This document shows positions 539 to 38,876 of a stretch of 64,000 nt of DNA, one piece after another. The position numbers and the translations under genes were made by a program. This DNA is from a bacterium (GTDB lineage: Bacteria > Patescibacteriota > Microgenomatia > Curtissbacterales > GWA2-41-24), in NCBI GenBank assembly GCA_021813945.1, contig JAKAJD010000002.1, positions 173,936-237,935 of the forward strand, given 5' to 3'. The notes beneath the pieces were generated by a model. It made no database searches. It was not told the DNA's origin and saw nothing but the letters and a program-made list of their open reading frames with translations. Numbering within the stretch: the stretch's first letter is position 1; each line of letters starts with the position of its first letter.

Positions 539-539
539 T

Positions 540-7286: not shown

Positions 7287-7349
7287 GAAGATTTTACAGT
7301 GTTAGGTATGTAACTGTCAACAAAAAATAGAGTTGATATAATTTATAAG

Positions 7350-7943: not shown

Positions 7944-7950
7944 CAATCTG

Positions 7951-21280: not shown

Positions 21281-21973
21281 ATGCCAAAAAAAATACCTAT
21301 TGTAGTTTTAATTGGCGGAGGTTCAAAATTACCGGCCCTTATTCAAGCAGCAAAAGAAAAGACGAGTAAATTTGAAATAAAACTCGTCGTAAGCCACAAA
21401 GCTTTTTCTCCGGGAATAGAGATTGCCTTAAAAAATAAAATTCCAGCAGTATATTTTAATTTACCAAACTTTAGAAAAAGACTTTTTGCAGGCGACCAAA
21501 AAGGAAAAATTGATTATCAAAAAAACTTAGGCTGGTTCATAAGTCAGGATCAATATGCACCTGAACTTTTGGTTTTTGCTGGTTGGGATTTGATATTGGA
21601 CAGAAACTTCTTCGATTTCTTCAAGTGCAGCTTTGGAAACGGTTTTGCAGCCATAAATCTTCATCCAGCAATTTTACCCAAAAAACAAGAAGGTCAAAAT
21701 ATAAAAATGCCTGATGGTGAAATGACACCAATCATTAAGGGAGAGCAATCAGAGGTTTTACAAGAAGTATTAAAACAAAAACTTTCCTATTTTGGCCCTA
21801 CCGTACATTTTATGGATGCTGAAGGATACGACACTGGTGAAATAGTTGAAAGGGAATTTATAAAAGTTGGAGATGCTAAAACTATTGAAGATCTAAGAAA
21901 AAAGCTTATGCCCGTCGAAGACAGAATTCTCATCTCATCAATAAATAAAGTCATAGATAAATACCTCTTATGA
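21281..21973 (+). CDS. purN: Phosphoribosylglycinamide formyltransferase (with an internal insertion)
   Basis: Formyltransferase motif AINLHPAILP (cf. NIHPSLLP). N-terminal IVVLIGGGSKL. First gene of the pur cluster. Confidence 0.75.
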   Translation: MPKKIPIVVLIGGGSKLPALIQAAKEKTSKFEIKLVVSHKAFSPGIEIALKNKIPAVYFNLPNFRKRLFAGDQKGKIDYQKNLGWFISQDQYAPELLVFAGWDLILDRNFFDFFKCSFGNGFAAINLHPAILPKKQEGQNIKMPDGEMTPIIKGEQSEVLQEVLKQKLSYFGPTVHFMDAEGYDTGEIVEREFIKVGDAKTIEDLRKKLMPVEDRILISSINKVIDKYLL

Positions 21974-23271
21974 TAAAAAAAACCGTTTTGGTAGTAGATG
22001 GCGGCGGCAGGGGATCTGCACTTGTTAAAAAATATTTGCAAAGCAAATCGGTAGGGCAAGTTTTAGCAACCCCGGGTAATGATTTAATGCTTCTTGATAA
22101 AAAAGTCAAAGTTTTTCCAAATGTTAAAACTACGGATGCCCAGAAAATTCTCAAAATCTGCATAGCCGAGAAAGTTAATCTAGTTGATGTAGCACAAGAC
22201 AATGCAGTTGAGGCAGGTGTCACAAATCTCCTTTTAAAAAATCACGTCTATGTTTTTGGCCCGACAAAAGAAGCAGGACAAATCGAATGGGATAAGTCAT
22301 GGTCTAAAAATTTCATGAAAAAATACAAAATTCCGACTGCAAAATTTAATGTTTTCAATTCCGAAAAGGCTGGTATTGACTTCATCAAAAACCAAAAAAA
22401 CTCGAAATGGTATGTAAAAGCATCAGGCCTAGCAGCAGGTAAGGGTGCTATCTTTGCTTCGAATAATAAAGAAGCGGTCAGTGCTATCAAAGAAATAAAA
22501 AATTTCGGTAAGGCAGGGGATACTTACGTTATTGAGCAGTGTTTAGAGGGTGAGGAATTTTCATCATTTGCTGCAGTTTCTGGTCAAAATTTTCTGATTT
22601 TGGGCCACGCCCAAGACCATAAAACGGTTTTCGATAATAATCAGGGACCAAATACCGGAGGGATGGGTTGTTCGTCTCCACCATTGGTAATAACTTCAAA
22701 AATCGAGAAACAAATTACGGATATATTTAAAAAAACAGTTAACGGACTAGTCAAAGAAAAACGGCCATACTTTGGGATTTTATATTTAGGCGGCATTATA
22801 GAAAAAAATGGAAAACTAAAAGTCATTGAATTTAACGCAAGATGGGGTGATCCGGAGGCGCAAGTTATAGTACCTTCATTAAAAAACGATTTTTATGATT
22901 TGGCAAAAAAAGTAATAGAAGGCAATATAAAAAAGATAAAAATCGAAAGGGAAAAGGGTTACAAAGTAGCGGTAGCTGCCGCCTCTAAAGGGTATCCTAA
23001 TGACTACCAAAACGTTATTGGCAAAAAGATTGTGGGTCTTGAAAAAATTCTCAAATTAAAAAACGTTGAAATTTTCGGAGCCGGCGTCAAAAAATTAGGG
23101 AAAAATTTTCTTGCGTCTGGCGGTCGGCTTTTTTATGTTATGGCAACCGGGAAGAATGTTGCAGAAGCTAGAAAAAAAGCCTATAATGCCCTCTCTTTAG
23201 TTTCTATTGCCGGTGGAAATTTGCATTATCGCCGTGATATAGGCTACAGAGATCTTAAAAGAATCGAATGA
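21970..23271 (+). CDS. purD: Phosphoribosylamine-glycine ligase
   Basis: 433-aa ATP-grasp protein with the PurD N/A/C domain order (LVVDGGGRGSAL…). Confidence 0.9.
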   Translation: MIKKTVLVVDGGGRGSALVKKYLQSKSVGQVLATPGNDLMLLDKKVKVFPNVKTTDAQKILKICIAEKVNLVDVAQDNAVEAGVTNLLLKNHVYVFGPTKEAGQIEWDKSWSKNFMKKYKIPTAKFNVFNSEKAGIDFIKNQKNSKWYVKASGLAAGKGAIFASNNKEAVSAIKEIKNFGKAGDTYVIEQCLEGEEFSSFAAVSGQNFLILGHAQDHKTVFDNNQGPNTGGMGCSSPPLVITSKIEKQITDIFKKTVNGLVKEKRPYFGILYLGGIIEKNGKLKVIEFNARWGDPEAQVIVPSLKNDFYDLAKKVIEGNIKKIKIEREKGYKVAVAAASKGYPNDYQNVIGKKIVGLEKILKLKNVEIFGAGVKKLGKNFLASGGRLFYVMATGKNVAEARKKAYNALSLVSIAGGNLHYRRDIGYRDLKRIE

Positions 23272-26096
23272 TTTTTGAAGTTAGGGTTAAATCAAAAGCA
23301 GAAACAGACGCAAAAGGTGAAGCACTTCTTGCGGAAATTAAAAAGACATTAAATATTCACTCAATCGGAAAAATCCAGAGCGCCAAAGTTTATCGCCTCG
23401 AAAATATAAAAAAAGAAGATTTAATAAAATTCTCTAAAATTGCTCTTTACGAAGAAATAGACCAAATAGCAACATACAATAAACCGATTTTTCCAAAAAC
23501 TGCAAAAGTATTGGAAGTTGCCTATAAACCCGGTGTTATGAATCCGGAAGTAGCTTCTATTTTAAAAGTCTCAAACGATTTAAAGATTAAGATAGAAGCC
23601 TGTGATTCTTCTTGGGAATATGCTTTTTTCGGCCCTGTCTCAAAATCTCAAATTGAAAAAATAACTAAAAGGTTGTTGGTCAACGACACAGTTGAAACTT
23701 TAGTCAAGCAGGTTCCCAAAACTTTAAAAATTTCAGGCACTGCTCAAAAAGTTCAAATAATTCCAATCCGTTCATTCAATAATCAGCAACTGATGGATTT
23801 ATCTCGGGACAAATTATTTTTAAATCTTGAAGAGATGAAAGTCATCCAAAGCTATTTTGCGAAAATAAAAAGAGACCCAACTGATTGTGAACTGGAAACT
23901 CTTGCACTTACCTGGTCCGAGCATTGCGGTCACAAAACATTCCGAGCAAAATTAACTATCGACGGCAAACAAAAGGAATCGTTTATTTCTCGCATTAAAA
24001 AAACGGCCAAAAATAATCAAAAATTAATTGTTAGCGCTTTCGATGACAATTCTGGTGTTATAGATTTCTATGATGGCTGGGCGATATCTGGAAAAGTCGA
24101 AACACATAATTCTCCATCTGCAATCGAACCATACGGAGGTGCGATGACAGGTTCCGGCGGCGTATTTCGCGATATTTTGGGAACAGGCCAGGGTGCAAAA
24201 CCGGTTGTCTCAACTGACGTTTTCTGTTTCGCTCCGCCTGATTTGGCCGCCAAAGATCTTCCCCCAGGCTGTCTGCCACCGGAATATTTACTTCGAAAGG
24301 TTGTTTATGGCGTCAGGGATTACGGCAATAGGGTCGGGATTCCAACCAACAACGGATCAATACACTTTCATCAAGACTTTCGTGCCAAACCGACAGTTGC
24401 TGTCGGATCTTTCGGCTTAATAGAAAAATCAAAAGCAAAAAAGGGCAAACCAAAATTGGGCAATTTAATTTTAACTTTAGGTGGTGCAACAGGCCGCGAC
24501 GGAATCCATGGCGCAACATTCGCATCCGGAGAAATGACAGATAGAACAATTAACGTTTCAGGATCTGCAGTCCAAATCGGAAATGCAATTGAAGAAAAGA
24601 GGCTTATCGATGCGATTTTAAGGCTTAAAGAAGAAAATCTTATCTGCGCGATAACGGATTGCGGGGCGGGCGGATATGCATCGGCAATCGGCGAAATGGC
24701 CAAAGAAACTGGAGCTGAAGTTTATCTAGATAAGGTCCCTCTTAAATACACAAATCTTGCCCCATGGGAAATTTTCCTTTCCGAATCGCAGGAACGAATG
24801 GTACTTGCAATTAATCCAAAAGATCTTAAAAAAGTTCAAAAGATTTGTGAAACGTACAATGTTCCAAATAATGTAATCGGGAAGTTTACCTCTAACAAAA
24901 AACTGATTATTTATTATCAAAAACAAATAGTATGCAACTTATCTATGGATTTCCTTCACGACGGCCTTCCTCAACGGAAAATGATTGGTAAAACAAAGTC
25001 AAAATACCAGAATAATAAAATTAGGAAAAATTCAAAACCAATTAATATCGAAAAAATTTGGCAAAAAGTTATGGCTCATGGAAATGTGTGTTCAAAGGAA
25101 CCAATAGTTAGAATGTATGACCATAATGTCCAAGGAACCGCGGCGCTCCATCCTTTTTCCGGCCAAAATTTTGACGGCCCAAACGACGGCGCAGTGATCC
25201 GTCCAATTCTGGCTAAACCTTATGGTCTCATCATCACCCACGGTTTGAATCCGCAGCTCAATTCCATAGACCCTTATTTGGGAAGCGTTTGGGCAATTAT
25301 GGAAGCGGTTGCTAACTTTGTCTCAATCGGAGGAAACCTGAAAGACGCGGCCTTAGTGGATAATTTTATTTGGCCTTTTCCTGACGAGGAATCATTAGCA
25401 GATCTGGATAAATCTGTCGATGCCTGCCTGGATATGGCGAATCTTTTGAAGATGCCATTTGTTTCGGGAAAAGATTCCCTTTCCTCAACTTACAGATACC
25501 CCACGGGCAAAGTATTAAAAATCCCTCCCGTCCTTTTGATTTCTGTTTTTGGAAAAATTCCCGACGTTTCGAAAACAGGAAGTTCCGATTTTAAAAAAGT
25601 CGGATCAACCATAGTTTTAGTTGGTAAAGGAGATTTCGGAAATCTTGGCGGCTCAGCATATTTTGATGCCATAAAATCAGAAAGCAGCAATATTCCAAAA
25701 CCGGATCTCTCATCAGCCACCAAAGTTTTCTCATCAATAACTTCGGGAATCAAATCATCAAAAATTCTTTCATGTCATGACATTTCCGAAGGTGGTTTAG
25801 CAACAGCACTTGCGGAGATGTGCTTCGGCGGAAATTGCGGTGCTGAAATATCAATCAAAGGTTTCAAATATCCAGATCATCAAATATTATTTTCCGAAAC
25901 ACCCGGCACATTTCTAGTCGAAGTGGAAAATGAAAAAGCAGCCAAAAAACTTTTTGCAAAAGTACCTAATACAATTTTAGGCAAAACCATTAAGTCAGAC
26001 ACAATCATAGTTAAAGGCTCAAAAACAATAAAGGTTAGTGCCAGCTCATTAAAAAACTCCTGGCAAAAACCGATGAAAGAGGTGTTTAATGGTTAA
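23268..26096 (+). CDS. purL: Phosphoribosylformylglycinamidine synthase, PurS-PurL fusion
   Basis: 942 aa. The N-terminal ~80 aa (MIFEVRVKSKAETDAKGEALLAEIK…) are a PurS-like ferredoxin fold. The rest is small-type PurL with duplicated AIRS domains (…SHNSPSAIEPYGGAMTGSGGVFRD…). Confidence 0.9.
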   Translation: MIFEVRVKSKAETDAKGEALLAEIKKTLNIHSIGKIQSAKVYRLENIKKEDLIKFSKIALYEEIDQIATYNKPIFPKTAKVLEVAYKPGVMNPEVASILKVSNDLKIKIEACDSSWEYAFFGPVSKSQIEKITKRLLVNDTVETLVKQVPKTLKISGTAQKVQIIPIRSFNNQQLMDLSRDKLFLNLEEMKVIQSYFAKIKRDPTDCELETLALTWSEHCGHKTFRAKLTIDGKQKESFISRIKKTAKNNQKLIVSAFDDNSGVIDFYDGWAISGKVETHNSPSAIEPYGGAMTGSGGVFRDILGTGQGAKPVVSTDVFCFAPPDLAAKDLPPGCLPPEYLLRKVVYGVRDYGNRVGIPTNNGSIHFHQDFRAKPTVAVGSFGLIEKSKAKKGKPKLGNLILTLGGATGRDGIHGATFASGEMTDRTINVSGSAVQIGNAIEEKRLIDAILRLKEENLICAITDCGAGGYASAIGEMAKETGAEVYLDKVPLKYTNLAPWEIFLSESQERMVLAINPKDLKKVQKICETYNVPNNVIGKFTSNKKLIIYYQKQIVCNLSMDFLHDGLPQRKMIGKTKSKYQNNKIRKNSKPINIEKIWQKVMAHGNVCSKEPIVRMYDHNVQGTAALHPFSGQNFDGPNDGAVIRPILAKPYGLIITHGLNPQLNSIDPYLGSVWAIMEAVANFVSIGGNLKDAALVDNFIWPFPDEESLADLDKSVDACLDMANLLKMPFVSGKDSLSSTYRYPTGKVLKIPPVLLISVFGKIPDVSKTGSSDFKKVGSTIVLVGKGDFGNLGGSAYFDAIKSESSNIPKPDLSSATKVFSSITSGIKSSKILSCHDISEGGLATALAEMCFGGNCGAEISIKGFKYPDHQILFSETPGTFLVEVENEKAAKKLFAKVPNTILGKTIKSDTIIVKGSKTIKVSASSLKNSWQKPMKEVFNG

Positions 26097-26862
26097 ACCA
26101 AATGTTTGCATCCTAAGATCCGACGGCGCAAATTGCGACGAAGAACTATATTATGCTTTTGAAAAATTTGGTGCCAAACCCCAACTTGTTCACGTAAACG
26201 AACTTCGCAATAAGTCTAAAAAACTCAAGAATTTCCAAATACTGGCTCTTCCCGGCGGTTTCTCATATGGTGATGATATTGCCAGCGGCAAGGTGTTGGC
26301 AATCGAACTTGTAAGTTTCTTGGGAGAAGAAATCCGAAATTTTGTCGCAAAAAAAGGTTTAGTTTTAGGAATTTGTAACGGTTTTCAAACTTTGGTCAGG
26401 ACGGGTCTTTTGCCATTTAACAATTTTGGCAAAATGGACGTGACTTTAGCCCAAAACGACAGCGGCCATTTTGAATGTCGATGGGTAAAAATTAAAAACG
26501 AAAAAAGCAAATGCGCATTTTTAAATCATAAGGATCCAATCGATATTGCGGTAAATCACGGTGAAGGAAAATTCTATGCTGACCAGAAAACAATCAAAAA
26601 AATCGAAGACGAAAACTTGGTCGTTTTCCGATACATCAACAGTCAAGGCAAACCCACACAAAAATACCCGGAAAATCCTAACGGATCAATTAACGCTATT
26701 GCAGGCGTGTGTGATCCGACTGGTAGAATTCTTGGCATGATGCCACATCCGGAAAAATTTATAAACATCACTCAACACCCAAACTGGCGCCGCCAAAAAT
26801 TCACAAAACCCCACGGGGCATTTATTTTCGAAGATCTGATTTCGTATGCAAAGAAAAATTAA
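26089..26862 (+). CDS. purQ: Phosphoribosylformylglycinamidine synthase glutaminase subunit
   Basis: Class-I GATase with …LALPGGFSYGDD…GICNGFQ…MPHPE…. Confidence 0.9.
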   Translation: MVKPNVCILRSDGANCDEELYYAFEKFGAKPQLVHVNELRNKSKKLKNFQILALPGGFSYGDDIASGKVLAIELVSFLGEEIRNFVAKKGLVLGICNGFQTLVRTGLLPFNNFGKMDVTLAQNDSGHFECRWVKIKNEKSKCAFLNHKDPIDIAVNHGEGKFYADQKTIKKIEDENLVVFRYINSQGKPTQKYPENPNGSINAIAGVCDPTGRILGMMPHPEKFINITQHPNWRRQKFTKPHGAFIFEDLISYAKKN

Positions 26863-27739
26863 TAAACTGAAATCGCTAAAATCTACGCGCTTAATCACGA
26901 TGGAAGCGCTCTATCAGGCGTTGAAAAAAGTTTTAGTAGAAAATAAACCTGTGTCAGAAATAGATTTAAAGAAAGAATGGCTAAAGGAACTTCAAAAAAG
27001 TAGGGAAATATTTAAGAATGGTTGGTATGTTCCTCCACCCAATGGAATTGCAATCATATTTGCTCAAGACAATAAACCCAAAAGAACACAATTTCGCAGC
27101 CTTCGTTTTAAAGAAAATTTTCCTCAAAACAACATATTTCTGGACAAAAACAGAGGCATTATGATTCTCTATGCTTCTCCGGTTAGCAAAAAGACAGGAA
27201 TTATCGGAGATTTTGGACTTACATTATATTTTGGGAGTGCGCCTGAAGTGACAAAGCACATTAAAAATATCTTGAGTATACAAAAAAAAGTTTTTAACTA
27301 TGCAAAGCTAGGTATGTCTTTTTCTACGCTCTACAAATATGCAGACGGGCTTTTTAAGAAAAATAGTTTATCAAACGATTGGTGGCTTAATGTAACTGAT
27401 CCATCCGGTAGAAATATGGGACACACATCTCCTTCAACAGAAAAAGACTGGAGCGACAAAGAATATAAACTTCTAAATAATGCTAATAAAAATTGGAAAA
27501 ATACAGCTACTATGATCAGCAAAAGAAGGATATTTTTTAGCCCAAAAGAAAAATCAGTAATAAAAAAAGGACTTGCATTTTCCATCGAAAGCAGATTAAA
27601 AAAAGTTGGTGATCCGAATTTTCCAGTAGTATGGTTTCACTCTGTGGCAATTTTCCAAAAAAGCGGTAAAAAAGAATTCTTGACAAACTTTGATAAATTA
27701 TTCAAACTGGCTGGGATGAATTACGCGCTTAATTATTAA
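26846..27739 (+). CDS. Hypothetical protein inside the pur operon (possibly a degenerate M24/pita-bread-like protein)
   Basis: 297-aa ORF translationally coupled between purQ and purM. No confident family. There is weak resemblance to the creatinase/prolidase fold (…SGRNMGHTSP…). Confidence 0.4.
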   Translation: MQRKINKLKSLKSTRLITMEALYQALKKVLVENKPVSEIDLKKEWLKELQKSREIFKNGWYVPPPNGIAIIFAQDNKPKRTQFRSLRFKENFPQNNIFLDKNRGIMILYASPVSKKTGIIGDFGLTLYFGSAPEVTKHIKNILSIQKKVFNYAKLGMSFSTLYKYADGLFKKNSLSNDWWLNVTDPSGRNMGHTSPSTEKDWSDKEYKLLNNANKNWKNTATMISKRRIFFSPKEKSVIKKGLAFSIESRLKKVGDPNFPVVWFHSVAIFQKSGKKEFLTNFDKLFKLAGMNYALNY

Positions 27740-27742
27740 AAT

Positions 27743-28837
27743 ATGAAAAAAATTTCTTACAGCAAAGTTGGAGACAACTACGACACAAAAGATCCAATTA
27801 AAAAATTGGCGCAAGTTGCAGCGCGTCAAACGAAAATTAGCGAAGCAGATTTTAAAGAAATAACCGACACTAGAGGAGAATCGGCTTTTGTCTGGCAGCA
27901 AGGAGCGGCTTTAATGGCGTCTGTAGTTGAGGGTTTGGGAACAAAAAATCTCGTTGCAGATGAAATGAGAAAAATAACTGGCAAAACTTATTACGACGTA
28001 ATCGGTTACGATACCGTTGCGACAATTATTAACGACCTGATAACGGTTGGCGCAAAGCCAAGAGTGGTTCACGCATATTGGGCTATTGAAGACAACGGTT
28101 GGCTTCAAGACACTGAAAGGATGACAGATTTTATAAAAGGATGGAAAGATGCCTGTCAGGTTTCGATGGCCGTATGGGGCGGAGGAGAAACGCCAACATT
28201 AAAAGGAATAGTTGAAAAAAACACTGTTGATTTAGGCGGCTCCGCAATCGGCGTTATAAAAAATCCAAAAAATTTAATTACAGATAGAAAACTAAAATCA
28301 GGGGATAGAATTCTACTTTTTAAATCAAACGGTATTAATTGCAATGGTTTGTCGCTTGCTCGGGCAGTTGCCAAAAAACTAAAAAACGGTTACGGTGAAA
28401 AATTATCAAACGGCCAAACGTATGGAGAATCAATTCTCACAAAAACAAATATTTATGCAAAGCTAATACAAGATTTACTCTCAGCCGGTATAGATATTCA
28501 TTACATATCCAATATCACAGGTCACGGACTTAGAAAAATCATGCGGGCTCGCGGTAACTTTACTTATGTAATTGAAAAACTTTTTAACCCTCAGGAAATA
28601 TTTTTATTCATCCAAAAGCACGCAAATTTAACGGATGATGAAATATACCAAACCTTAAATATGGGCCAAGACTATGCAATCTTCATCGACAAAAAAGACG
28701 TCAAAAAAACGCAAGACATAGTCAAAAAAAACAAATTTGAATCAATTGATGCTGGGTATATCGAGTCAGGACCACGTCAAGTAATCATCAAACCCAAAAA
28801 AATTAAATTTTCATCAGAATCACTAGATTTAAGATGA
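27743..28837 (+). CDS. purM: Phosphoribosylformylglycinamidine cyclo-ligase (AIR synthase, PurM family) with an N-terminal extension
   Basis: Motifs EGLGTKNLV, NDLITVGAKP and WGGGETPTLKGIV match PurM GxGTK / DLxxxGAEP / GGETAEMPG. Confidence 0.7.
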   Translation: MKKISYSKVGDNYDTKDPIKKLAQVAARQTKISEADFKEITDTRGESAFVWQQGAALMASVVEGLGTKNLVADEMRKITGKTYYDVIGYDTVATIINDLITVGAKPRVVHAYWAIEDNGWLQDTERMTDFIKGWKDACQVSMAVWGGGETPTLKGIVEKNTVDLGGSAIGVIKNPKNLITDRKLKSGDRILLFKSNGINCNGLSLARAVAKKLKNGYGEKLSNGQTYGESILTKTNIYAKLIQDLLSAGIDIHYISNITGHGLRKIMRARGNFTYVIEKLFNPQEIFLFIQKHANLTDDEIYQTLNMGQDYAIFIDKKDVKKTQDIVKKNKFESIDAGYIESGPRQVIIKPKKIKFSSESLDLR

Positions 28838-29091
28838 GTGAGACATTAATAGAAGAAATAGAGACAATAAAAGAACGTAATAAGAGGGTGGAAAAAGACA
28901 AAGCCTGGGAAACAAGTTGGACGAGAAAAACTGCGATTGCAGTAACAACCTACATTTTAATTACAATTTTTCTAATAATCATCAAGGTCGAAAAACCATT
29001 TCTTTCCGCAATAATACCGGCTATTGCCTATCTCGTTTCAACGGCTTCACTAGGAATCCTCAAAGACTGGTGGCTTAAAAACCAAAAATAA
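28834..29091 (+). CDS. Small hypothetical membrane protein (85 aa, 2 TM)
   Basis: ORF overlapping the purM stop by 4 nt. Hydrophobic core. Confidence 0.3.
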   Translation: MSETLIEEIETIKERNKRVEKDKAWETSWTRKTAIAVTTYILITIFLIIIKVEKPFLSAIIPAIAYLVSTASLGILKDWWLKNQK

Positions 29092-29133
29092 AATTCATTT
29101 GACTTTCGTATTTACTTCGGGTATACCTAGCCC

Positions 29134-30393
29134 ATGGATTTGTTCGACGAAAACCAAAAAGAATTTGCGCCGCTTGCGGACCGTATGCGTCCTAAAAACC
29201 TTGAACAATTCGCAGGGCAAAAACATTTGGTATCACAAGGAAAAATTTTAGAAAAAGCAATCAAAGAAGACAAATTGTTTTCCATGATATTTTGGGGACC
29301 ACCCGGATCTGGAAAAACTACCCTTGCAAGAATCATCGCCTCCGAAACTAAATCCAATTTTGTTCCAATTTCTGCAGTTACATCCAATGTGGCGGAAATT
29401 AAAAAAATTATTCAAAGCGCTCAAGACACTCAAAAGCTACAAAAGCAAAGGACCATTCTCTTTATCGACGAAATCCACCGCTTCAATAAAGCGCAACAGG
29501 ATGTTTTACTTCCTCACGTCGAACGAGGAACAATCACCTTAATCGGCGCGACAACCGAAAATCCCTCATTTGAAGTGATTGGTGCTTTACTTTCAAGGTC
29601 CCGCGTTTTAAAACTAGAATCACTCTCCGAAGAAGATCTCGAAAAAATAATCAAAAGCTCTCTAAAGAATAAAACCGAGGGACTCGGCAAACAAAAAATC
29701 AAAATAGATAAAAAAGCGCTTGATTTTTTAATTTCTCAATCAAACGGAGATGCAAGGTTTGCCCTTAACACTCTCGAAATTGCATCTTCGCAGATTAAGA
29801 GTCAGTCCACTCTAAAAATGGAAAACTTCACAAGCGCTCTCCAAAGGCACACAACTTTTTACGACAAAAAAGGGGATTACCATTACGATACAATTTCTGC
29901 CTACATCAAAAGCATGCGGGCAGGAAAAACTGATGCAGCACTTCATTATTTGGCGCGAATGATTGAAGCAGGAGAGGATCCGGTTTTTATCGCCCGCCGC
30001 ATGGTGATTTTTGCCTCAGAAGACATCGGCAACGCAATGCCCACTGCTTTGGTTATTGCAACTTCTGCAATGCAGGCAGTCCATATGGTTGGCATGCCTG
30101 AATCAACTTTAATTCTTTCACACGTCACGTCATATTTATCGGAAGCCCCAAAAAGTATTGCTTCAACGACCGCAATTTCAAAGGCTCTTTCTGATATCAA
30201 AAATATTCCCCTCGATCCAATCCCTCTGCACTTAAGAAATGCACCGACAAAAATGATGAAAGAAATGGGGTACGGAAAAGGTCATATTCGCTATCCATGG
30301 ATGGACGAAAACAGCGACAAAAAAATTCTGGAATATATGCCAAAAAATCTCATCGGTAAAAAATATTATCAGGATCCAAGAAAGAAAAAATAA
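29134..30393 (+). CDS. rarA: Replication-associated recombination protein A (AAA+ ATPase RarA/MgsA)
   Basis: Walker A FWGPPGSGKTTLARI, Walker B ILFIDEIHRFNK, and the MgsA C-terminal helical domain. Confidence 0.9.
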   Translation: MDLFDENQKEFAPLADRMRPKNLEQFAGQKHLVSQGKILEKAIKEDKLFSMIFWGPPGSGKTTLARIIASETKSNFVPISAVTSNVAEIKKIIQSAQDTQKLQKQRTILFIDEIHRFNKAQQDVLLPHVERGTITLIGATTENPSFEVIGALLSRSRVLKLESLSEEDLEKIIKSSLKNKTEGLGKQKIKIDKKALDFLISQSNGDARFALNTLEIASSQIKSQSTLKMENFTSALQRHTTFYDKKGDYHYDTISAYIKSMRAGKTDAALHYLARMIEAGEDPVFIARRMVIFASEDIGNAMPTALVIATSAMQAVHMVGMPESTLILSHVTSYLSEAPKSIASTTAISKALSDIKNIPLDPIPLHLRNAPTKMMKEMGYGKGHIRYPWMDENSDKKILEYMPKNLIGKKYYQDPRKKK

Positions 30394-30433
30394 TTTTTTT
30401 GCATTTTCTTAAAGTATCCTATATAATTCCACA

Positions 30434-31447: not shown

Positions 31448-31448
31448 C

Positions 31449-32720
31449 ATGGCAAAGTTAAACAAATGGCATGGAACAGCGGCAGTAATAGGGATCGATT
31501 GGGGTGATTCCGGAAAAGGCCGGTTAATTGATGATCTGTCCCAAAATGCGAATGTAATTGCCCGCTTCAACGGTGGTTCAAACACTGGCCACACTGTTTC
31601 AAATAAATTCGGAAAATTTGCGATGCATATAACACCTTCCGGAATTTTTAATCAAAAAGCAACGTGCCTTGTCGGTCGCAACGTTGCGGTCAACCTGGAA
31701 GTGCTAATTCAAGAGCTGGACTCATTCAAAAAAGCCGGTGTTGCTTTTAAAAATTTGGTTATAGATGAGCAAGCGCCTTTGACGATGCCTTGGCATATTT
31801 TACGGGATGGCATCAGGGAAAAAGTCCGTAAATCAAAAATCGGCACAACCGGAAATGGGGTGGGACCTACGTATGCAGACTACACGGAAAGAGTTGGGTT
31901 AAAAGTTATCGATTTATTATCAAGCGATCTAAAAGAAAAAATTTACAATGAAGCCGAAATTCAAAATAAATTTTTTAATCTTAAGATTTCACCAAATGAT
32001 GTATATTCGAAGTTTTCAAAATACTCAAAAGTTATAAAACCTTATGTTGGAAATACAATACAAATCATAAAACAAAATTTACAAAAAAATAAAAACATCC
32101 TTTTTGAAGGTGCCCAAGGCTACTTTTTAGATATCGATGCGGGAACTTACCCATTTGTAACATCGTCAAATCCCGGAGTTGTCGGAATTTGGAGATCTTA
32201 CGATTTACACCCGCAAAATTTAGACCATGTAATAGGAATCACCAAAGCTTACACAACTCGGGTCGGATCTGGTCCAATGCCAACCAAAATGGATGAGAAA
32301 ACTTCCAAACAAATTATCGAAAAAGGTCATGAAGTTGGAACTACAACCGGAAGGATCCGATCTCCCGGTTGGCAAGATTTAGTTCTTTTAAAATACGCGC
32401 ATGAAGCAAACCACCTTACAGCTCTTGCTATAACAAAATTGGATATCCTAAGCGGTCAAAAAAAGATCAAATTAGGCGTCGGGTATAAATTAAACGGCAA
32501 AGAAACAACATACTTGTCTCACAGTTCTGAATTTTTAGAAAACGTTCGGCCAGTTTATGAAGAATTTGAAGGGTGGCAGGAAGATATATCTAACGTTAGA
32601 GAATTTGAAAGGCTTCCTAAGAATGCTAAAAAATATATAGAGGCGATTGAGAAATTCACCAAAATTCCGGTTAAATTCATTTCAGTTGGCCCTAAAAGAG
32701 GTGAAGTAATTTATGTCTAA
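31449..32720 (+). CDS. purA: Adenylosuccinate synthetase
   Basis: GIDWGDSGKGRLID…FNGGSNTGHTV is the canonical PurA N-terminus. Confidence 0.9.
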   Translation: MAKLNKWHGTAAVIGIDWGDSGKGRLIDDLSQNANVIARFNGGSNTGHTVSNKFGKFAMHITPSGIFNQKATCLVGRNVAVNLEVLIQELDSFKKAGVAFKNLVIDEQAPLTMPWHILRDGIREKVRKSKIGTTGNGVGPTYADYTERVGLKVIDLLSSDLKEKIYNEAEIQNKFFNLKISPNDVYSKFSKYSKVIKPYVGNTIQIIKQNLQKNKNILFEGAQGYFLDIDAGTYPFVTSSNPGVVGIWRSYDLHPQNLDHVIGITKAYTTRVGSGPMPTKMDEKTSKQIIEKGHEVGTTTGRIRSPGWQDLVLLKYAHEANHLTALAITKLDILSGQKKIKLGVGYKLNGKETTYLSHSSEFLENVRPVYEEFEGWQEDISNVREFERLPKNAKKYIEAIEKFTKIPVKFISVGPKRGEVIYV

Positions 32721-33807
32721 GCCTAAAGATTACACAATTGCAGTAGTTGGTTCACACAGCGCCCTAGACATCTGTCGAGGAGCAAAGGATTTAGGTTTTA
32801 AAACTTTAGTCGTTGTTGAAAAAGGAAGAGACAAGACTTATGCCCAATATTTTAAAACAGATGGGGAATTGGGATGTGTCGATGAAGTTTTGGAGGTCGA
32901 AAAATTTAAAGATATTTTGGAACCTAAAAATCAGAAAACCTTAAAAGATAAAAATTCAATATTTATTCCTCACCGCTCATTCGAAGTTTATCTTAACGAT
33001 TACGACGCAATAGAAAAAGATTTTAAAGTACCTATGTTTGGCAATAAATATTTGCTCAGAATCGAGGAAAGGTATGTCAAACCAAACCAATATGATTTGT
33101 TAACTGAAGCTAAAATAAAATTCCCGAAGACATTTGATAATCCAAAGGAAATAGATCGTTTGGTTTTGGTAAAAGTCGCAGAACGTGAAAGGAAATTCGA
33201 AAGAGCATTTTTTCTAGCAAGCTCTCCAAAAGATTTTCAGATCGCTTCCGAAATATTAATTTTGGAAGGAAAAATTACAAAGGATGCCCTCGATGTTGCA
33301 GTAATTGAAGAATTTATTTTAGGGGTCCAAATTAATTTTAATTTCTTCTATTCACCTTTTACAAAAAGGGTAGAACTTGCCGGAACGGACACAAGAAGAC
33401 AGACCAACATAGACGGTCTCCTAAGACTTCCCGCTTTTTATCAAACTCAGCTGCAGGAATCAATACAAATCAAATATGAAGAGGCTGGTCACATCGCTGT
33501 AACTACCCTTGAATCAACGCTGGAACCAGCTTTTGAGATGGCAAACCGTTTTGTAGATGCCGCACGAAAATTATATCCTCCCGGAATAATCGGGCCGTTC
33601 GGGCTTCAATCGGTAATTACTGCGGGTCCACCCAAAAAAGAGATTGTGGTTTTCGATGTTTCACCCAGAATGCCTGGATCGCCGGGAATTTTTGCAACAC
33701 CTTATAGCGGTTATTTATATGGGGAGCCGATGAGTATGGGAAAAAGAGTGGCAATGGAAATAAAAAAAGCTATTGACCAAAATTCAATCGATAAAATTAC
33801 GACATGA
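32713..33807 (+). CDS. Second PurP-family ATP-grasp protein (paralog)
   Basis: IAVVGSHSALDICRGAKDLGFKT parallels the first PurP. 364 aa. Confidence 0.65.
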   Translation: MSKPKDYTIAVVGSHSALDICRGAKDLGFKTLVVVEKGRDKTYAQYFKTDGELGCVDEVLEVEKFKDILEPKNQKTLKDKNSIFIPHRSFEVYLNDYDAIEKDFKVPMFGNKYLLRIEERYVKPNQYDLLTEAKIKFPKTFDNPKEIDRLVLVKVAERERKFERAFFLASSPKDFQIASEILILEGKITKDALDVAVIEEFILGVQINFNFFYSPFTKRVELAGTDTRRQTNIDGLLRLPAFYQTQLQESIQIKYEEAGHIAVTTLESTLEPAFEMANRFVDAARKLYPPGIIGPFGLQSVITAGPPKKEIVVFDVSPRMPGSPGIFATPYSGYLYGEPMSMGKRVAMEIKKAIDQNSIDKITT

Positions 33808-35186
33808 AGACAAATTTTGATAATTACCAATCACCTTTTTCCTGGCGTTACGGATCGGACGAAATGCGCCAGCTTTTTTCTGAAGTCAATCGCCGAAAAA
33901 CATGGCGGCAAGTTTGGGTATCGTTAGCAAAGGCTCAAAATAAATTCGGTCTGATTTCTAAAAAAGAATTAAATGACATAATCAAACATCAAAATGTAAT
34001 AGATATCGAAAAAGCGCATCAAATCGAAAGCGAAATAAAACACGATTTAATGGCAGAGGTAAAAACGTATGCTTCACAAGCCAAAATCGGCGGAGGTAAG
34101 ATTCACCTCGGCGCAACTTCCCAAGATATAGAAGACAACGCGGATGCAATTATCTTTAAAGATGCACTCGCGATAATAGAAAAAAACTTAAACAAGCTTC
34201 TTAAAGTTTGGTTACTAAAAATCGACGAAAATAAAGATTTAGTTTGCATGGCCTACACACACCTGCAACCGGCTGAACCGACAACCTTAGGTTATCGGTT
34301 TTCACTATATGCGCAAGATTTACTCATTGATCTGGAATTATTAAATTACATAAAAACTCAAATAAAAGGAAAAGGAACAAAAGGAGCAGTAGGAAATTAC
34401 GCCAGCTATATGTCCCTGTTGGGATCTAAAACCGAAAACATGGAAGAAGCCGTTTTGAAAGATCTCGGCATCGAAGCTTTCGACATTACAGGACAAGTCT
34501 ACCCAAGAAAATTAGATTATTTAGTCTTATGTTTGCTGTCTTCTATCGCACAAAGCCTTTATAAATTCGCTTTCGATTTAAGAATTCTTCAGTCGGCACA
34601 GTTTGGAGAACTGGCGGAACCATTTGCCAAAAAACAAGTCGGTTCATCTGCGATGCCTTTTAAAAGAAATCCTCAGAACTCGGAAAGAATTTGTTCGCTC
34701 GCTCGTTACATTGTCGGTCTATCAAGAACTGCCTGGGACAACGCAGCAAATTCGCTTCTCGAGCGAACGCTCGACGATTCCGCAGCCAAAAGAATAATAA
34801 TTCCAGACAGCTTCTTGGCAACAGACGAAATATTAAAACTTACCTTATATATAGTTTCAGACATGGTAATAAACAAAAAGAACATTGAAAAAAACCTTAA
34901 ATCTTATGGACCATTTTCTGCACTCGAATCAATTCTTTTAAAAAGTGTTAAAAACGGTGCAAACCGACAGGAAATGCATGAAGTCCTCAGGGAGCATTCA
35001 ATGCGTGTCTACGATGAAATGGCTAAAACCGGCGAAAACAAATTGTTCCAGAATTTAAGCTACGATAAGACCATTTTAAAATATTTATCTAAATCTGAAA
35101 TTGATAGTCTCTCAAATTATAAAAAACATATAGGTCTTTCGGAAAAGAAATCAAGATCGATGATTTCAAAAATTAAAAATATTTAA
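33804..35186 (+). CDS. purB: Adenylosuccinate lyase
   Basis: Fumarate-lyase signature GSSAMPFKRNP and …GATSQDIEDNA…. Confidence 0.9.
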   Translation: MKTNFDNYQSPFSWRYGSDEMRQLFSEVNRRKTWRQVWVSLAKAQNKFGLISKKELNDIIKHQNVIDIEKAHQIESEIKHDLMAEVKTYASQAKIGGGKIHLGATSQDIEDNADAIIFKDALAIIEKNLNKLLKVWLLKIDENKDLVCMAYTHLQPAEPTTLGYRFSLYAQDLLIDLELLNYIKTQIKGKGTKGAVGNYASYMSLLGSKTENMEEAVLKDLGIEAFDITGQVYPRKLDYLVLCLLSSIAQSLYKFAFDLRILQSAQFGELAEPFAKKQVGSSAMPFKRNPQNSERICSLARYIVGLSRTAWDNAANSLLERTLDDSAAKRIIIPDSFLATDEILKLTLYIVSDMVINKKNIEKNLKSYGPFSALESILLKSVKNGANRQEMHEVLREHSMRVYDEMAKTGENKLFQNLSYDKTILKYLSKSEIDSLSNYKKHIGLSEKKSRSMISKIKNI

Positions 35187-35291
35187 AATGAAGAAAATAA
35201 TTTTGCCACTTCATAAATATGTAAAAACAATATACAATAGCAAAAATAATCCTGAACGACTTGCCCAAGATAACTGCCCTGTAAACTAAAT

Positions 35292-35834
35292 ATGGCAAAT
35301 CAAAAGAAAGTACGTCCGCAAGTAGGAATAATAATGGGCTCCGATTCGGATCTAGGGGTTATGTCTGATGCGGCAAAAATTTTAGACGAACTTAAGGTTC
35401 CGTATGAAGTATCTGTACTTTCTGCGCACAGAGCACCTTCGGAAACTAATGCTTATTCCGCCTCAGCACAAAAACGGGGTTTAAAGGTGATCATCGCCGG
35501 TGCGGGTGGTGCAGCAGCTTTGCCGGGTGTTGTGGCTTCGCAAACATTGTTACCAGTTGTAGGTGTTCCCATTAAGTCCAAAGCAGTAGAAGGATTAGAC
35601 GCTCTCCTTTCTATAAGTCAAATGCCTCCCGGAATTCCAGTTGCCACAGTTGGTATAGATTCGGCAAAAAATGCCGGAATTTTAGCAGCCGCAATTGTTG
35701 CCTTATCAAACAAAGAAGCAGCTAAAAAATTAGCAAATTACAAAAGCAGTTTAAAAAAACAAGTTCTTGTCAAAAATTCAGCTCTTAAAAAGCTTGGATG
35801 GTCCAAATATTTAAAAGGAAAAAATGCTAGATAA
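35292..35834 (+). CDS. purE: N5-carboxyaminoimidazole ribonucleotide mutase
   Basis: VGIIMGSDSDLGVM…VIIAGAGGAAALPGVVAS is a PurE hallmark. Confidence 0.9.
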   Translation: MANQKKVRPQVGIIMGSDSDLGVMSDAAKILDELKVPYEVSVLSAHRAPSETNAYSASAQKRGLKVIIAGAGGAAALPGVVASQTLLPVVGVPIKSKAVEGLDALLSISQMPPGIPVATVGIDSAKNAGILAAAIVALSNKEAAKKLANYKSSLKKQVLVKNSALKKLGWSKYLKGKNAR

Positions 35835-36795
35835 AAAAATAATACAAAAAAATATTCCTAATGCTATAAAAGCGGTTCCAGTTCGAAACCTTGGTAAAAG
35901 GCAAAGCGGAAAGGTTCGCGATTGGTATAGTAAAAATAATCTTAGAATTCTTATTGCCACGGACAGAATATCGGCTTTCGATAAAGTTTTGGGATTAATC
36001 CCCTTCAGGGGCGCAGTTTTAAACAAACTTTCAGAATTTTGGTTTAACACAACTCGGGATATAGTTTCTAACCACATGATTGGTGTTGTTGATCCAAACG
36101 TTATGTTGGTTTCCGAAGTTCAAGCACTGCCAATAGAAGTTGTAGTCAGAGGTTACATTACCGGTGTTACCGACACATCTCTTTGGAAACAATATAACGA
36201 GGGCAAAAGAACAATTTATGGCATAAAATTTCCCGAGGGCCTTAAAAAAAATCAAAAACTTAAAGCTCCGGTTATTACTCCGACCACAAGAGGAACCGGT
36301 CCGGGTGGGCATGACGAACCGATTACCAAACAAGAAATCATAAAAAAGAAATTAGTACCGCCTGCAATTTACAAGCAAATTGAAAAAGTAGCGATCAAGC
36401 TTTTTGAAAGAGGAACACTAGTTGCAGCAAAAGCCGGTTTTATACTAGCTGATACTAAATATGAATTTGGGATCGACAAAAAAGGTAAATTAATTTTAAT
36501 AGACGAAATCCATACTCCAGACAGCAGCAGGTATTGGCTCAAAAAAACATATGCACCATTAGTTTCCAAAGGTCATGAACCCGAAAATTACGATAAAGAA
36601 TTTATGAGACTTTGGTTTGCAAAAAGCGGTTACACCGGCAAGGGCAAAGCTCCTACAATGCCGGATGATCTAGTTGTTAAAATTTCGCAAAGATACATGG
36701 AAGTATATGAAAGATTAACGGGAGAAAAGTTTGATGTTGATACAAAAATACCTCAGCTTGAAAGGATTATGGAAAGCCTCGAAAAATTGATATAA
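35824..36795 (+). CDS. purC: SAICAR synthetase (long form)
   Basis: …LIATDRISAFDKVLG… with PurC ATP-binding region. Confidence 0.85.
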   Translation: MLDKKIIQKNIPNAIKAVPVRNLGKRQSGKVRDWYSKNNLRILIATDRISAFDKVLGLIPFRGAVLNKLSEFWFNTTRDIVSNHMIGVVDPNVMLVSEVQALPIEVVVRGYITGVTDTSLWKQYNEGKRTIYGIKFPEGLKKNQKLKAPVITPTTRGTGPGGHDEPITKQEIIKKKLVPPAIYKQIEKVAIKLFERGTLVAAKAGFILADTKYEFGIDKKGKLILIDEIHTPDSSRYWLKKTYAPLVSKGHEPENYDKEFMRLWFAKSGYTGKGKAPTMPDDLVVKISQRYMEVYERLTGEKFDVDTKIPQLERIMESLEKLI

Positions 36796-36799
36796 GATT

Positions 36800-38320
36800 A
36801 TGGTCGCAGTTATAAACTTTGGCGGCCAATATGCACATCTTATCGCAAGGCGAATTCGAGAGCTCGGTGTAAAAAGCGAACTTTTCCCCCCAGAAATATC
36901 TATCCAAAAAATAACAGATTTATCTCCAGACGCCATTATTTTTTCTGGAAGTCCATTTTCGGTTTACGATAAAAAAGCACCGCACATCAATCCAAAAATT
37001 TACGAATTGCAAATTCCTATTTTAGGAATCTGCTACGGCCAGCAATTGATTGCCTATCAACTTAACGGCTCCGTTTCGTCACACGACTCAAAGCAGTTTG
37101 GTAAAGAAAATCTAAAAATAGGCAAATCACAATTATTTGAAGGTTTAAAAAAGACTGAAACAGTCTGGTTTTCGCATGGTGACCAAGTGGACAAAATCCC
37201 ATTGGGTTTTACTATTATCGCTTCTTCAAAAAATGCCAAAGTCGCTGGTATTCAAAACCCGACATCCAAAATCTACGGAATTCAGTTCCACCCTGAAGTA
37301 ACCCATACACCTTCCGGGCGAAAAATTCTTAGTAATTTTTTGTTTACGATTGCAAACACCAAAAAAGATTGGGATCTCAAAAAGCAAAAAGATGAAATCA
37401 TAAACAGTTTAAGTCACAAAATAAAATACCATAGAGTCATTATGGCAATTTCTGGGGGCGTCGATTCATTGGTTGCGGCAGCTTTACTCAAAGAGGCGAT
37501 TGGTAATAATCTACATTTGGTTTTTATAGATACAGGGCTTCTTAGAAAAAATGAAGTCTCAGAAGTTCAATCGATTGTAAAAAAAGTTGGTTTTGTAAAC
37601 TTTAAAATATCAAATTCCAGCGAAAGATTTCTATCCGCACTCAAGGGCGTTACAGATCCGGAAGAAAAACGCCAAATTATCGCTAAACATTATTTTGCAA
37701 TTTTTGAAGAAGAAGCTAAGAGGATTAAATCAGTAAAATACCTTGCTCAAGGGACAATTTATCCAGACCGTATCGAATCGGCACAACCAACAAAGCACGC
37801 CGATAAAATTAAAAGTCACCACAATCTAACATTACCAAAAGGTCTCGAGCTTGAAATCGTCGAACCACTTGCCGAGTTTTACAAAGACGAAGTTAGAAAA
37901 ATCGGCGCTATACTTGGTATCAATCAGCAGTTTTTACTTCGTCATCCGTTTCCTGGCCCAGGCCTTGCAATTAGAATTCTCGGAGAGGTTACAAAAGAAC
38001 GATTATCAATACTAAGGGAGGTCGATTATGTATTAATTTCGGAGCTTAGATCAGCAGGTTTATATGATAAGGTAGGGCAAGCTTTTGCAGCCTTGCTTCC
38101 TGTCAAATCAGTCGGTGTCATGGGTGATGCCCGCACCTATTCATATATCGTCAGCTTACGATCAGTCGACACTCAAGATTTTATGACCGCCGATTGGTCA
38201 AAAATCCCATTTTCGGTTTTAGAAAAAATTTCCTCTCGAATCGTCAACGAAGTCCGCGGGGTAAACCGCGTCCTTTATGACATTACTCAAAAGCCTCCAG
38301 CAACGATAGAGTATGAGTAA
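36800..38320 (+). CDS. guaA: GMP synthase (glutamine-hydrolysing)
   Basis: GATase domain (ICYGQQ), PP-loop SGGVDSLVAA, and C-terminal dimerisation domain ending …TIEYE. Confidence 0.95.
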   Translation: MVAVINFGGQYAHLIARRIRELGVKSELFPPEISIQKITDLSPDAIIFSGSPFSVYDKKAPHINPKIYELQIPILGICYGQQLIAYQLNGSVSSHDSKQFGKENLKIGKSQLFEGLKKTETVWFSHGDQVDKIPLGFTIIASSKNAKVAGIQNPTSKIYGIQFHPEVTHTPSGRKILSNFLFTIANTKKDWDLKKQKDEIINSLSHKIKYHRVIMAISGGVDSLVAAALLKEAIGNNLHLVFIDTGLLRKNEVSEVQSIVKKVGFVNFKISNSSERFLSALKGVTDPEEKRQIIAKHYFAIFEEEAKRIKSVKYLAQGTIYPDRIESAQPTKHADKIKSHHNLTLPKGLELEIVEPLAEFYKDEVRKIGAILGINQQFLLRHPFPGPGLAIRILGEVTKERLSILREVDYVLISELRSAGLYDKVGQAFAALLPVKSVGVMGDARTYSYIVSLRSVDTQDFMTADWSKIPFSVLEKISSRIVNEVRGVNRVLYDITQKPPATIEYE

Positions 38321-38876
38321 AAAGGTTAAAAAATTTGTTGTCGTTACTTCTAACAAAAATAAATTAGCCGAAATAAATCAAATTCTTGGGACAAAATACA
38401 AGCTTAGCAAAATAGAAGTTCCCGAAATCCAATCACTCGACTTGGATCAAATAATTACCGAAAAAGCAAAAGCCGCATTTGAAAAAATCAAAAAACCTGT
38501 TCTTGTTGAAGATATCAGTTTTGAAATTCAATCATTAAAGGGTCTTCCAGGCCCATTTGTTAAATTTTTTCTGCAAAGGATTGGCACTGAAGGAACTGTT
38601 AAGTTAGTCGGCAACAAATCAACTAAAACGAAAGTTACAGCAGCACTTGGACTCTACAACGGGTCAAATGTCAAAATTTTCAAAGGTATAGTTTGGGGCA
38701 AATTATCCAAAAATAATAGGGGGGAAGGCGGATTTGGTTTCGATAAAGTTTTTATCCCTAAGGGCTACAAACAAACTTATGCAGAAATGGATCCGAATTT
38801 AAAAAACCAAATTTCCCACCGCGGCAAAGCGCTCCAAAAATTGAAAGAGTTTCTAATCAAGAATGAAAAAAATTAA
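38313..38876 (+). CDS. rdgB: Non-canonical purine NTP pyrophosphatase (Ham1/RdgB/ITPase)
   Basis: …TSNKNKLAEI…FGFDKVFIP…SHRGKAL are Ham1 motifs. Confidence 0.85.
   Translation: MSKKVKKFVVVTSNKNKLAEINQILGTKYKLSKIEVPEIQSLDLDQIITEKAKAAFEKIKKPVLVEDISFEIQSLKGLPGPFVKFFLQRIGTEGTVKLVGNKSTKTKVTAALGLYNGSNVKIFKGIVWGKLSKNNRGEGGFGFDKVFIPKGYKQTYAEMDPNLKNQISHRGKALQKLKEFLIKNEKN

Follow-up and report, generated by a model that had tools for sequence, protein, structure and literature searches.

We analyzed a 64-kb window of bacterial DNA (the whole stretch under study, in whose numbering all coordinates are given) that carries a long run of purine biosynthesis genes, among them two paralogs, PurP-A and PurP-B, of the archaeal enzyme PurP. 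Taken as a whole, the sequence evidence makes it rather probable that this run serves as the principal operon for de novo purine synthesis in a small, uncultivated Microgenomates-type bacterium from the Candidate Phyla Radiation (CPR), and that the PurP pair supplies the end of the pathway that leads from 5-aminoimidazole-4-carboxamide ribonucleotide (AICAR) to inosine monophosphate (IMP). The system can be classed as a bacterial representative of a module already known from archaea. PurP has so far been treated as an archaeal signature, and here a two-paralog archaeal module sits in a compact bacterial operon. That PurPs are confined to archaea is stated in the most extensive survey, which took in 1,403 complete genomes, and by Cruz et al. 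2019, who use the names PurP II and PurP III; our literature search found no paper linking PurP with CPR bacteria. The finding adds a case of a metabolic module common to two domains of life. It also offers a bacterial setting of about 1 Mb with tight operons for two questions, the function of class II and III PurPs and the identity of the ring-closing enzyme where PurH, PurO and PurJ are missing, and this compact operon context makes the PurP II/III questions more tractable.

The two PurP proteins and their relatives

As the first-pass annotation of this DNA had proposed, both proteins are true members of the PurP family and stand apart from PurT and PurK. Each carries an N-terminal DUF1246 and a C-terminal DUF1297 (ATP-grasp) domain, with scores of 152 and 233 bits in PurP-A and 144 and 211 bits in PurP-B, and a search of PDB matched both to the three solved PurP structures and to no others. 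PurP-A is closer to PF1517 of Pyrococcus furiosus (376 bits; PDB 2r84, E 1.6e-111) than to MJ0136 of Methanocaldococcus jannaschii (322 bits), and PurP-B matched the solved structures with 241 and 161 bits (PDB 2r7k, E 2.5e-70). The two proteins are 34% identical to each other.

Classes were assigned from signature residues in a MAFFT alignment anchored on MJ0136, whose M. jannaschii numbering we use for all PurP residues, with two look-ups of genomic context (loci L057 and L119, below) besides. According to Brown et al. 2011 (PMC3261824), the formyl contacts His27 and Arg314 are universal among PurPs, clusters Ia and Ib have Asn258 together with a (K/R)GG(K/R)G P-loop, and cluster II has His258 together with a glycine-free loop that is two residues longer. 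Both window proteins keep H27 and R314 as well as the AICAR-phosphate contacts S94 and S266. PurP-A has Asn258 and the loop GAAGGNG, with standard length and glycine pattern, whereas PurP-B has His258 and the loop AERERKFERAFF, two residues longer and without glycines. The window thus holds one member of each ancient class: PurP-A is of cluster I type (cluster Ib, or PurP II, closest to PF1517) and PurP-B of cluster II (PurP III), so that the two represent two ancient archaeal classes and not a local duplication. Across 61 full-length family representatives, the His258 class is without GxxGGxG and GTN320, retains K156, E200, R228, E265, S266 and R314, and has invariant residues of its own (R93, E163, R164, N208, Q297, D310 and G317). 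The residue pattern of this class is that of a selected, remodelled active site and not that of a decaying copy.

This arrangement closely resembles the archaeal combination of PurP II and PurP III (P. furiosus PF1517/PF0421, Sulfolobales, Thaumarchaeota), in which paralogs that are about 34% identical, one with Asn258 and the glycine loop and the other with His258 and the longer loop, always occur together, usually adjacent, within groups of pur genes and frequently next to purB, for the most part in genomes or clusters that lack PurH or PurO. The window system differs from it in its bacterial (CPR/Microgenomates) host, in having purA between the two genes in this lineage, in a PurP-A P-loop without basic residues and in a folate-type PurN within the operon. 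MJ0136, which is PurP I of M. jannaschii, shares the fold and family and the conserved formyl and AICAR contact residues; it is, however, a single gene product accompanied by the IMP cyclohydrolase PurO, whereas PurO is missing from the window, where two paralogs are found.

Homologues of PurP-B number more than 6,800. The 120 best are about 67-100% identical to it; the named ones come from Microgenomates lineages and are mostly annotated as "DUF1297 domain-containing protein". The view that such an operon would be unusual for CPR bacteria therefore does not apply to Microgenomates. A metagenome scan with PurP-B gave 59 loci with flanks of up to 10 kb (related loci from metagenome and genome scans are designated by L numbers below). 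Both PurP classes were present in 46 of them: directly adjacent in 33, separated by purA alone in 11, as in the window, where one gene of each class flanks purA, and with a gap of 0.4-1 kb in the remaining two. Twelve of the 59 loci had PurP-B only, and 11 of these 12 lay on contigs shorter than 4 kb. The pairing of PurP-A with PurP-B is obligate. In L119, from another lineage, a 383-aa open reading frame (ORF) at 6853-8004 lies between the two PurP genes, in the place that purA has in the window; it gave no Pfam match at E<=1 and is a candidate for a further pathway component.

Gene order provides the strongest argument for reading the pair as a substitute for PurH. PurP-free clusters of sister Patescibacteria (L012, L013, L018, L021 and L040) hold a canonical purH in the region equivalent to that of the pair, and purH was found inside the flanks of only one of the 59 PurP-B loci (L107). 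Several clusters are essentially complete except for the PurK and PurH steps, among them two with the order purF-purN-purD-purL-purQ-purPA-purPB-purB-purE-purC..purM (L085 and L112) and two with the order purL-purQ-purC-purE-purF-glyA-purN-purD-M24x-purM-purPA-purPB-purB-purA-guaB (L038 and L051). Microgenomates carry the PurP pair widely, as a rule at the position where purH would be expected. Bacterial PurH, which combines AICAR transformylase (AICARFT) and IMP cyclohydrolase (IMPCH), holds the same position in the pathway; unlike the window PurPs, it has an unrelated fold, depends on 10-formyl-tetrahydrofolate (10-formyl-THF) and includes a cyclohydrolase domain. A strict anticorrelation between the pair and purH was rejected, since two loci, L058 and L107, have both. 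Another locus, L045, which might have been taken for PurP-B alone together with PurH, is unusable, as it is cut directly upstream of purH, at the expected place of PurP-A.

The nearest placeable representative outside CPR, P0148, is 51% identical to PurP-B and is encoded on an archaeal contig (L057) with a family-B polymerase, Pus10 and a split guaA. The same contig carries adjacent His258 and Asn258 PurPs, and its Asn258 protein is 46% identical to PurP-A. The presence of the same adjacent pair in an archaeon makes it plausible that the pair moved between the domains as a unit, in whichever direction. The first-pass annotation had suggested acquisition from archaea, and a plausible archaeal link does hold.

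From AICAR to IMP

By homology, PurD, PurN (10-formyl-THF type), the large FGAM synthetase subunit mdPurL with PurQ, PurM, a class I-like PurE, PurC and PurB are predicted to build AICAR, and PurA with PurB and GuaA to make AMP and GMP. The AICAR-to-IMP end would be handled by the archaeal-type pair acting jointly, and not by PurH. PurP-A, with its intact glycine P-loop and Asn258, would be the ATP-grasp catalytic subunit and would formylate AICAR with formate and ATP. PurP-B, with no P-loop, His258 and invariant residues of its own, would be the partner that PurP-A cannot do without, and the two would plausibly form a hetero-oligomer. The ring could be closed to IMP by the pair itself, by an enzyme whose gene lies in another part of the genome, or in a slow reaction that needs no enzyme.

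Several observations on archaea bear on this proposal. In 61 archaeal genomes, mostly without PurH, PurV, PurO or PurJ, PurP II is accompanied by PurP III (PMC6486802). In P. furiosus, PF1517 and PF0421 are each inactive alone, although PF1517 binds ATP and AICAR, and a II/III heterohexamer was proposed because neither protein alone showed activity (PMC6486802). Extracts of Sulfolobus solfataricus incorporated labelled formate during the conversion of AICAR (ZMP) to IMP (PMC3261824), and Crenarchaeota and Pyrococci are without any known IMP cyclohydrolase (Brown et al. 2011, PMC3261824).

The window itself contains no recognizable alternative for this step. Pfam scans and phmmer searches with CPR PurH found no IMP cyclohydrolase in the 64 kb, neither PurH2/PurJ of the methylglyoxal synthase (MGS) type nor PurO, and the absence of purH from the window, already noted in the first-pass annotation, held up in the same searches. 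The ORF scans likewise gave no purF, purK, guaB, purO/purJ, purT, fhs or folD; the Pfam scans covered 35 of the ORFs of at least 120 aa (not those that overlap or nest with others, nor 59574-60647) and a minority of the ORFs shorter than 120 aa. Genes for PurF, PurK and GuaB must lie in another part of the genome, unless their steps are bypassed.

A number of points weigh against joint action of the pair in place of PurH. Both proteins fall short of the NCBIfam equivalog cut-offs for formate--phosphoribosylaminoimidazolecarboxamide ligase (PurP-A 410 versus 580 bits, PurP-B 293 versus 556 bits), models that were built on archaeal sequences. The PurP-A P-loop has Ala and Asn in place of both basic residues (AGGNG versus (K/R)GG(K/R)G). 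FAICAR (formyl-AICAR) synthetase activity is proven for PurP I (MJ0136) only, and PurPs of clusters Ib and II have never been demonstrated to be active. A full purH lies near the pair in L107 and next to it in the Daviesbacteria metagenome-assembled genome L058, where the order is purPA-purPB-purH-purB, so PurH is not replaced by the pair in every case. Formyl-folate is available, as PurN and the glyA genes of relatives show, and the obvious reason for avoiding PurH is thereby gone. Finally, purH may sit elsewhere in the host genome, outside the 64 kb.

The two proteins could instead divide the work, PurP-A alone serving as a formate-dependent FAICAR synthetase and PurP-B, an ATP-grasp shell no longer engaged in ATP chemistry, as the missing IMP cyclohydrolase that activates the carboxamide through His258. 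A role as partner in the IMP cyclohydrolase step had also been mentioned for the second paralog in the first-pass annotation. We regard this as a tentative idea, favored by the residues themselves: in PurP-B the residues that touch the formyl group (H27, R314) and the AICAR phosphate (S94, S266) are preserved, the carboxamide-contacting Asn258 is replaced by an invariant His, the glycine P-loop and GTN320 are lost, and E297 and E310 have become Q and D. It also fits the lack of an IMP cyclohydrolase in the window and in otherwise complete clusters of the PurP type, and Brown et al. 2011 (PMC3261824) raised the idea that one PurP paralog might be a cyclohydrolase from archaeal phyletic patterns. 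The same authors called that pattern "imperfect", with Archaeoglobi owning the pair plus a PurH2 cyclohydrolase. Further difficulties are that L058 and L107 retain both paralogs beside a full PurH with its IMPCH domain, that PF1517, which is of PurP-A type, has no FAICAR synthetase activity alone, and that the ATP-grasp residues K156 and E200 are still present in PurP-B. It is possible, though not what we expect, that in these bacterial genomes of roughly 1 Mb the pair performs AICAR to FAICAR to IMP with PurP-B as cyclohydrolase, making PurH, PurO and PurJ all unnecessary. If true, an ATP-grasp shell would have taken on the work of a cyclase, and PurP-B would be the IMP cyclohydrolase that, since 2011, has counted as missing in Crenarchaeota, Thaumarchaeota and Pyrococcus.

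The loci with both systems suggest another reading, in which an ordinary purH is encoded elsewhere and the pair is a conditional, formate-using alternative for times when folate one-carbon units are scarce, comparable to PurT versus PurN. The presence of purH alongside the pair in L107 and, directly adjacent, in L058, the fact that the window spans only 64 kb of a contig of about 976 kb, and a similar apparent redundancy reported in archaea such as Methanosarcinales all speak for it. CPR genomes of about 1 Mb, on the other hand, seldom retain redundant routes; 58 of the 59 metagenome loci are free of purH in the flanks of up to 10 kb around the pair, and clusters that gather purF, glyA, purA and guaB are still without purH (L038, L051 and L085). 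We consider such a bypass unlikely, and joint action of the pair in place of PurH the better account.

That one or both PurPs act on another substrate, either in a PurT-like formylation of glycinamide ribonucleotide (GAR) or in a reaction outside purine synthesis, is very improbable. The function of cluster Ib and II PurPs is unproven, and Korarchaeum cryptofilum is reported to have the pair but to lack the other pathway genes. However, PurN with its intact catalytic triad already covers GAR formylation, the AICAR-phosphate and formyl contacts are conserved in both paralogs, and dozens of operons have the PurP genes in a position flanked by purQ/purM on one side and purB on the other. For PurP-B, to which the first-pass annotation had tentatively given a PurT-like role, the loss of the P-loop adds to these objections.

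Operon layout and the other pathway genes

The co-directional, mostly overlapping ORFs of the run are listed in Table 1, together with fusion genes from related loci. The 16 genes at 21281-38876 recovered by the ORF listing and the Pfam and NCBIfam scans agree in position and name with the first-pass annotation, which had let the run end at rdgB. It in fact reaches 39474, because a seventeenth ORF, encoding a HAD-IA phosphatase, overlaps rdgB by 14 bp; this end abuts a convergent GtrA-like gene. Neighboring genes overlap by 4-17 bp or are separated by 1-4 bp, except at three junctions: between the 85-aa ORF and rarA (42 bp), between rarA and purP-A (40 bp) and between purB and purE (105 bp). 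Identical or near-identical gene orders occur in other, independent assemblies (L005-L011 and L059-L069), and the operon arrangement is real and conserved.

Table 1. Genes of the purine run and M24x::PurM fusions in related loci. Names rest on Pfam and NCBIfam profile scans of window ORFs; coordinates of the fusions are those of the respective loci.
Feature	Coordinates	Strand	Evidence
purN-like GAR formyltransferase, 230 aa, divergent	21281..21973	+	Pfam Formyl_trans_N 1.1e-19; TIGR00639 82 bits, cut-off 150
purD (GAR synthetase)	21970..23271	+	TIGR00877 390 bits, cut-off 288
mdPurL, formylglycinamidine ribonucleotide (FGAM) synthetase with PurS-like N-terminal domain, 942 aa	23268..26096	+	TIGR01736 580 bits, residues 186-939
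purQ (FGAM synthetase glutaminase subunit)	26089..26862	+	GATase_5 1.4e-80; TIGR01737 203 bits, cut-off 178
M24x, divergent pita-bread (M24-like), 297 aa	26846..27739	+	weak Pfam M24 match
purM (aminoimidazole ribonucleotide (AIR) synthetase), divergent	27743..28837	+	TIGR00878 182 bits, cut-off 236; AIRS + AIRS_C domains
85-aa predicted membrane ORF	28834..29091	+	no family match
rarA/mgsA AAA+ ATPase	29134..30393	+	MgsA_C 3.5e-52
PurP-A, cluster I-type PurP, 337 aa	30434..31447	+	PDB 2r84 376 bits, 2r7k 322 bits
purA (adenylosuccinate synthetase)	31449..32720	+	NF002223 471 bits, cut-off 402
PurP-B, cluster II-type PurP ("PurP III"), 364 aa	32713..33807	+	PDB 2r7k 241 bits
purB (adenylosuccinate/succinylaminoimidazolecarboxamide ribonucleotide (SAICAR) lyase)	33804..35186	+	TIGR00928 400 bits, cut-off 326
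purE, class I-like	35292..35834	+	TIGR01162 199 bits, cut-off 150
purC (SAICAR synthetase)	35824..36795	+	NF009251 397 bits, cut-off 371
guaA (GMP synthase, bifunctional)	36800..38320	+	NF000848 704 bits
rdgB/Ham1 non-canonical purine NTP pyrophosphatase	38313..38876	+	Ham1p_like 1e-44
HAD-IA phosphatase, last gene of run	38863..39474	+	Pfam Hydrolase + HAD_2 matches
M24x::PurM fusions	L013 9971-11995; L015 1482-3488; L018 9989-11866; L045 9992-11986		

A folate-independent pathway, which the first-pass annotation had inferred from the PurPs, is not supported, because the catalytic residues of PurN are intact and the operons of relatives (L038 and L051) hold glyA. The PurN motifs INLHPAILP and YDTGEI align to NIHPSLLP and VDAGQI of the human GAR transformylase, so that the catalytic Asn, His and Asp (Asn106, His108 and Asp144 in Escherichia coli numbering) are all kept. 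The protein has an insertion of about 18-20 residues after the HPAILP motif. In L058, PurN and PurD are fused into a single protein of 632 aa.

The 942-aa PurL does have the extra, PurS-like N-terminal domain that led to its being called a PurS-PurL fusion. Its residues ~13-185 match the N-terminal domain found in large PurL, the PurS match is weak (residues 82-144, E 0.0014), no stand-alone PurS was found among the scanned window ORFs, and PurQ is a separate gene. The protein is better described as mdPurL, an architecture known from some methanogens (Brown et al. 2011, PMC3261824). As in the methanogen proteins, about 200 additional N-terminal residues take the place of PurS, PurQ is encoded separately, and an independent purS gene is missing from the vicinity; unlike them, it belongs to a bacterium, and its N-terminal domain aligns more clearly to that of large PurL than to PurS.

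Class I PurE (N5-carboxyaminoimidazole ribonucleotide (N5-CAIR) mutase) is marked by SAHR in the 40s loop and AGGAAHLPG in the 70s loop, and class II by SAHK and AGRSNGLGP. The window PurE has SAHR, and its 70s loop, AGGAAALPG, differs from the class I sequence in the replacement of His by Ala. Its expected companion purK is found at the purB-purE junction of the syntenic relatives L059 (12506-13630) and L063, whereas the corresponding junction of the window (35186-35292) is the 105-bp gap without purK; the window lineage has therefore lost or moved this gene. Class I PurE without PurK is known from the literature on archaea living at high CO2. Some relatives have PurC::PurE fusions in the domain order of eukaryotic PAICS (SAICAR_synt, then AIRC); the one in L004 (2-1369) was confirmed by Pfam, and those in L013 (6971-8494) and L019 (7700-9205) were inferred from an ORF length of ~500 aa.

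Three genes of the run lie outside the pathway proper or have no assigned part in it. RarA, a DNA-replication-associated AAA+ protein, sits in the middle of the operon and is not at that position in the syntenic relatives L059 and L061; it is a passenger gene. In L008, rarA looks split. The 85-aa ORF, without family assignment, has a predicted transmembrane segment and overlaps the end of purM, and its homologues come after purM in L006, L008, L059, L061, L063 and L067. Genes of the HAD family turn up again in related pur clusters (L003, L005, L067 and L068), and the HAD phosphatase probably serves nucleotide housekeeping, the role that homology assigns to RdgB as well.

The purM-linked gene M24x and the genomic setting

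The gene upstream of purM, which the first-pass annotation listed as unknown, can be placed by its fold, if not by its role. The AlphaFold2 model of this protein, M24x (pLDDT 93), gave prolidase, methionine aminopeptidase (MetAP) and creatinase as its best Foldseek matches, with TM scores of ~0.55-0.6, 10-14% identity and a probability of 1.0. A single-sequence search of PDB yielded nothing significant, and a profile search yielded marginal prolidase matches only. M24x is a distant, divergent protein of the pita-bread fold. The family is small, with 26 word-indexed homologues; a genome scan found 46 loci, mostly in Patescibacteria, with relatives of about 30% identity in actinomycetes and alphaproteobacteria. 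M24x adjoins purM in about 25 loci, even where the remaining cluster is rearranged, and four loci encode M24x (residues 4-300) and PurM (300-665) as a single ORF. The association with purM, in some loci a fusion, extends through Patescibacteria, and the protein is a candidate for an additional pathway component.

The invariant residues of M24x are D122, H193, E248 and R250. In the marginal profile alignment with P. furiosus prolidase, D122 corresponds to D220, E248 to E313 and the near-invariant H265 to E327, and Ser111 stands at D209. The five-ligand set of the M24 family (Asp, Asp, His, Glu, Glu) is therefore incomplete, the first Asp being Ser and the last Glu being His, and the residue pattern suggests that the dinuclear center was lost and that a mononuclear Asp-His-Glu-His site was possibly kept. 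M24x thus resembles M24 hydrolases (MetAP, prolidase, creatinase and the ectoine hydrolase DoeA) in overall fold and in equivalents of prolidase D220, E313 and, presumably, H284. It differs from them in its low identity, in the absence of the classical dinuclear site and in its linkage to purM.

M24x shares clusters with purH (L012, L040 and L045), with purK (L017, L018, L028 and L045) and with purF (L038 and L051), and it occurs in only two of the 59 PurP-pair loci; it is therefore no simple replacement of a canonical step. For the same reason it was rejected as the missing IMP cyclohydrolase, PurK or PurF, and a role as the housekeeping MetAP was rejected because the window has a normal map gene at 1060-1824. 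Our best guess, held with low confidence, is that M24x is a metal-dependent amidohydrolase-like accessory of AIR synthetase. Alternatively, it could be a peptidase that supplies amino-acid substrates, which would be in line with a C15 pyroglutamyl-peptidase-like gene found between M24x and purM in L012 (10866-11534), L019 and L021. These three loci, of Roizmanbacteria type or related, thus have a second peptidase-like gene within their pur operons.

The host is CPR-like, as had been suspected earlier: the window carries bacterial markers, and named homologues of the operon proteins come from Candidatus Curtissbacteria, Daviesbacteria, Microgenomates, Roizmanbacteria and Levyibacteriota. A PurP-B that is 100% identical to that of the window is recorded on a contig of 975,962 bp, a length usual for CPR genomes. 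The markers include a ribosomal operon of bacterial type (secY-adk-map-rpsM-rpsK-rpsD-rpoA-rplQ-rplM-rpsI, 137-6020) and the genes recA, recX, miaB, miaA and secDF and that of RNase Y. A bacterial class-A RNase P RNA is encoded on the minus strand at 20600-20950, inside the 685-bp gap upstream of purN. It matches the full model with 77.8 bits (E 1e-23), under the Rfam gathering score of 100, and was missed by the default scan; such a low score fits the divergent RNase P RNAs of CPR bacteria. The Rfam scan of the region upstream of purN gave this RNA, on the opposite strand, and no riboswitch, and promoter and terminator scans stayed at chance level (47 found versus 50 expected, and 16 versus 18).

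Elsewhere in the window, we found a SAM-I riboswitch at 53000-53100 (plus strand, 56 bits) and a DUF3800-IX RNA at 55215-55286 (minus strand, 60 bits), directly downstream of a DUF3800 protein gene at 54592-55215 (plus strand). A complete type I restriction-modification system, made up of hsdM, hsdS, a 357-aa ORF and hsdR, occupies 56760-63772.

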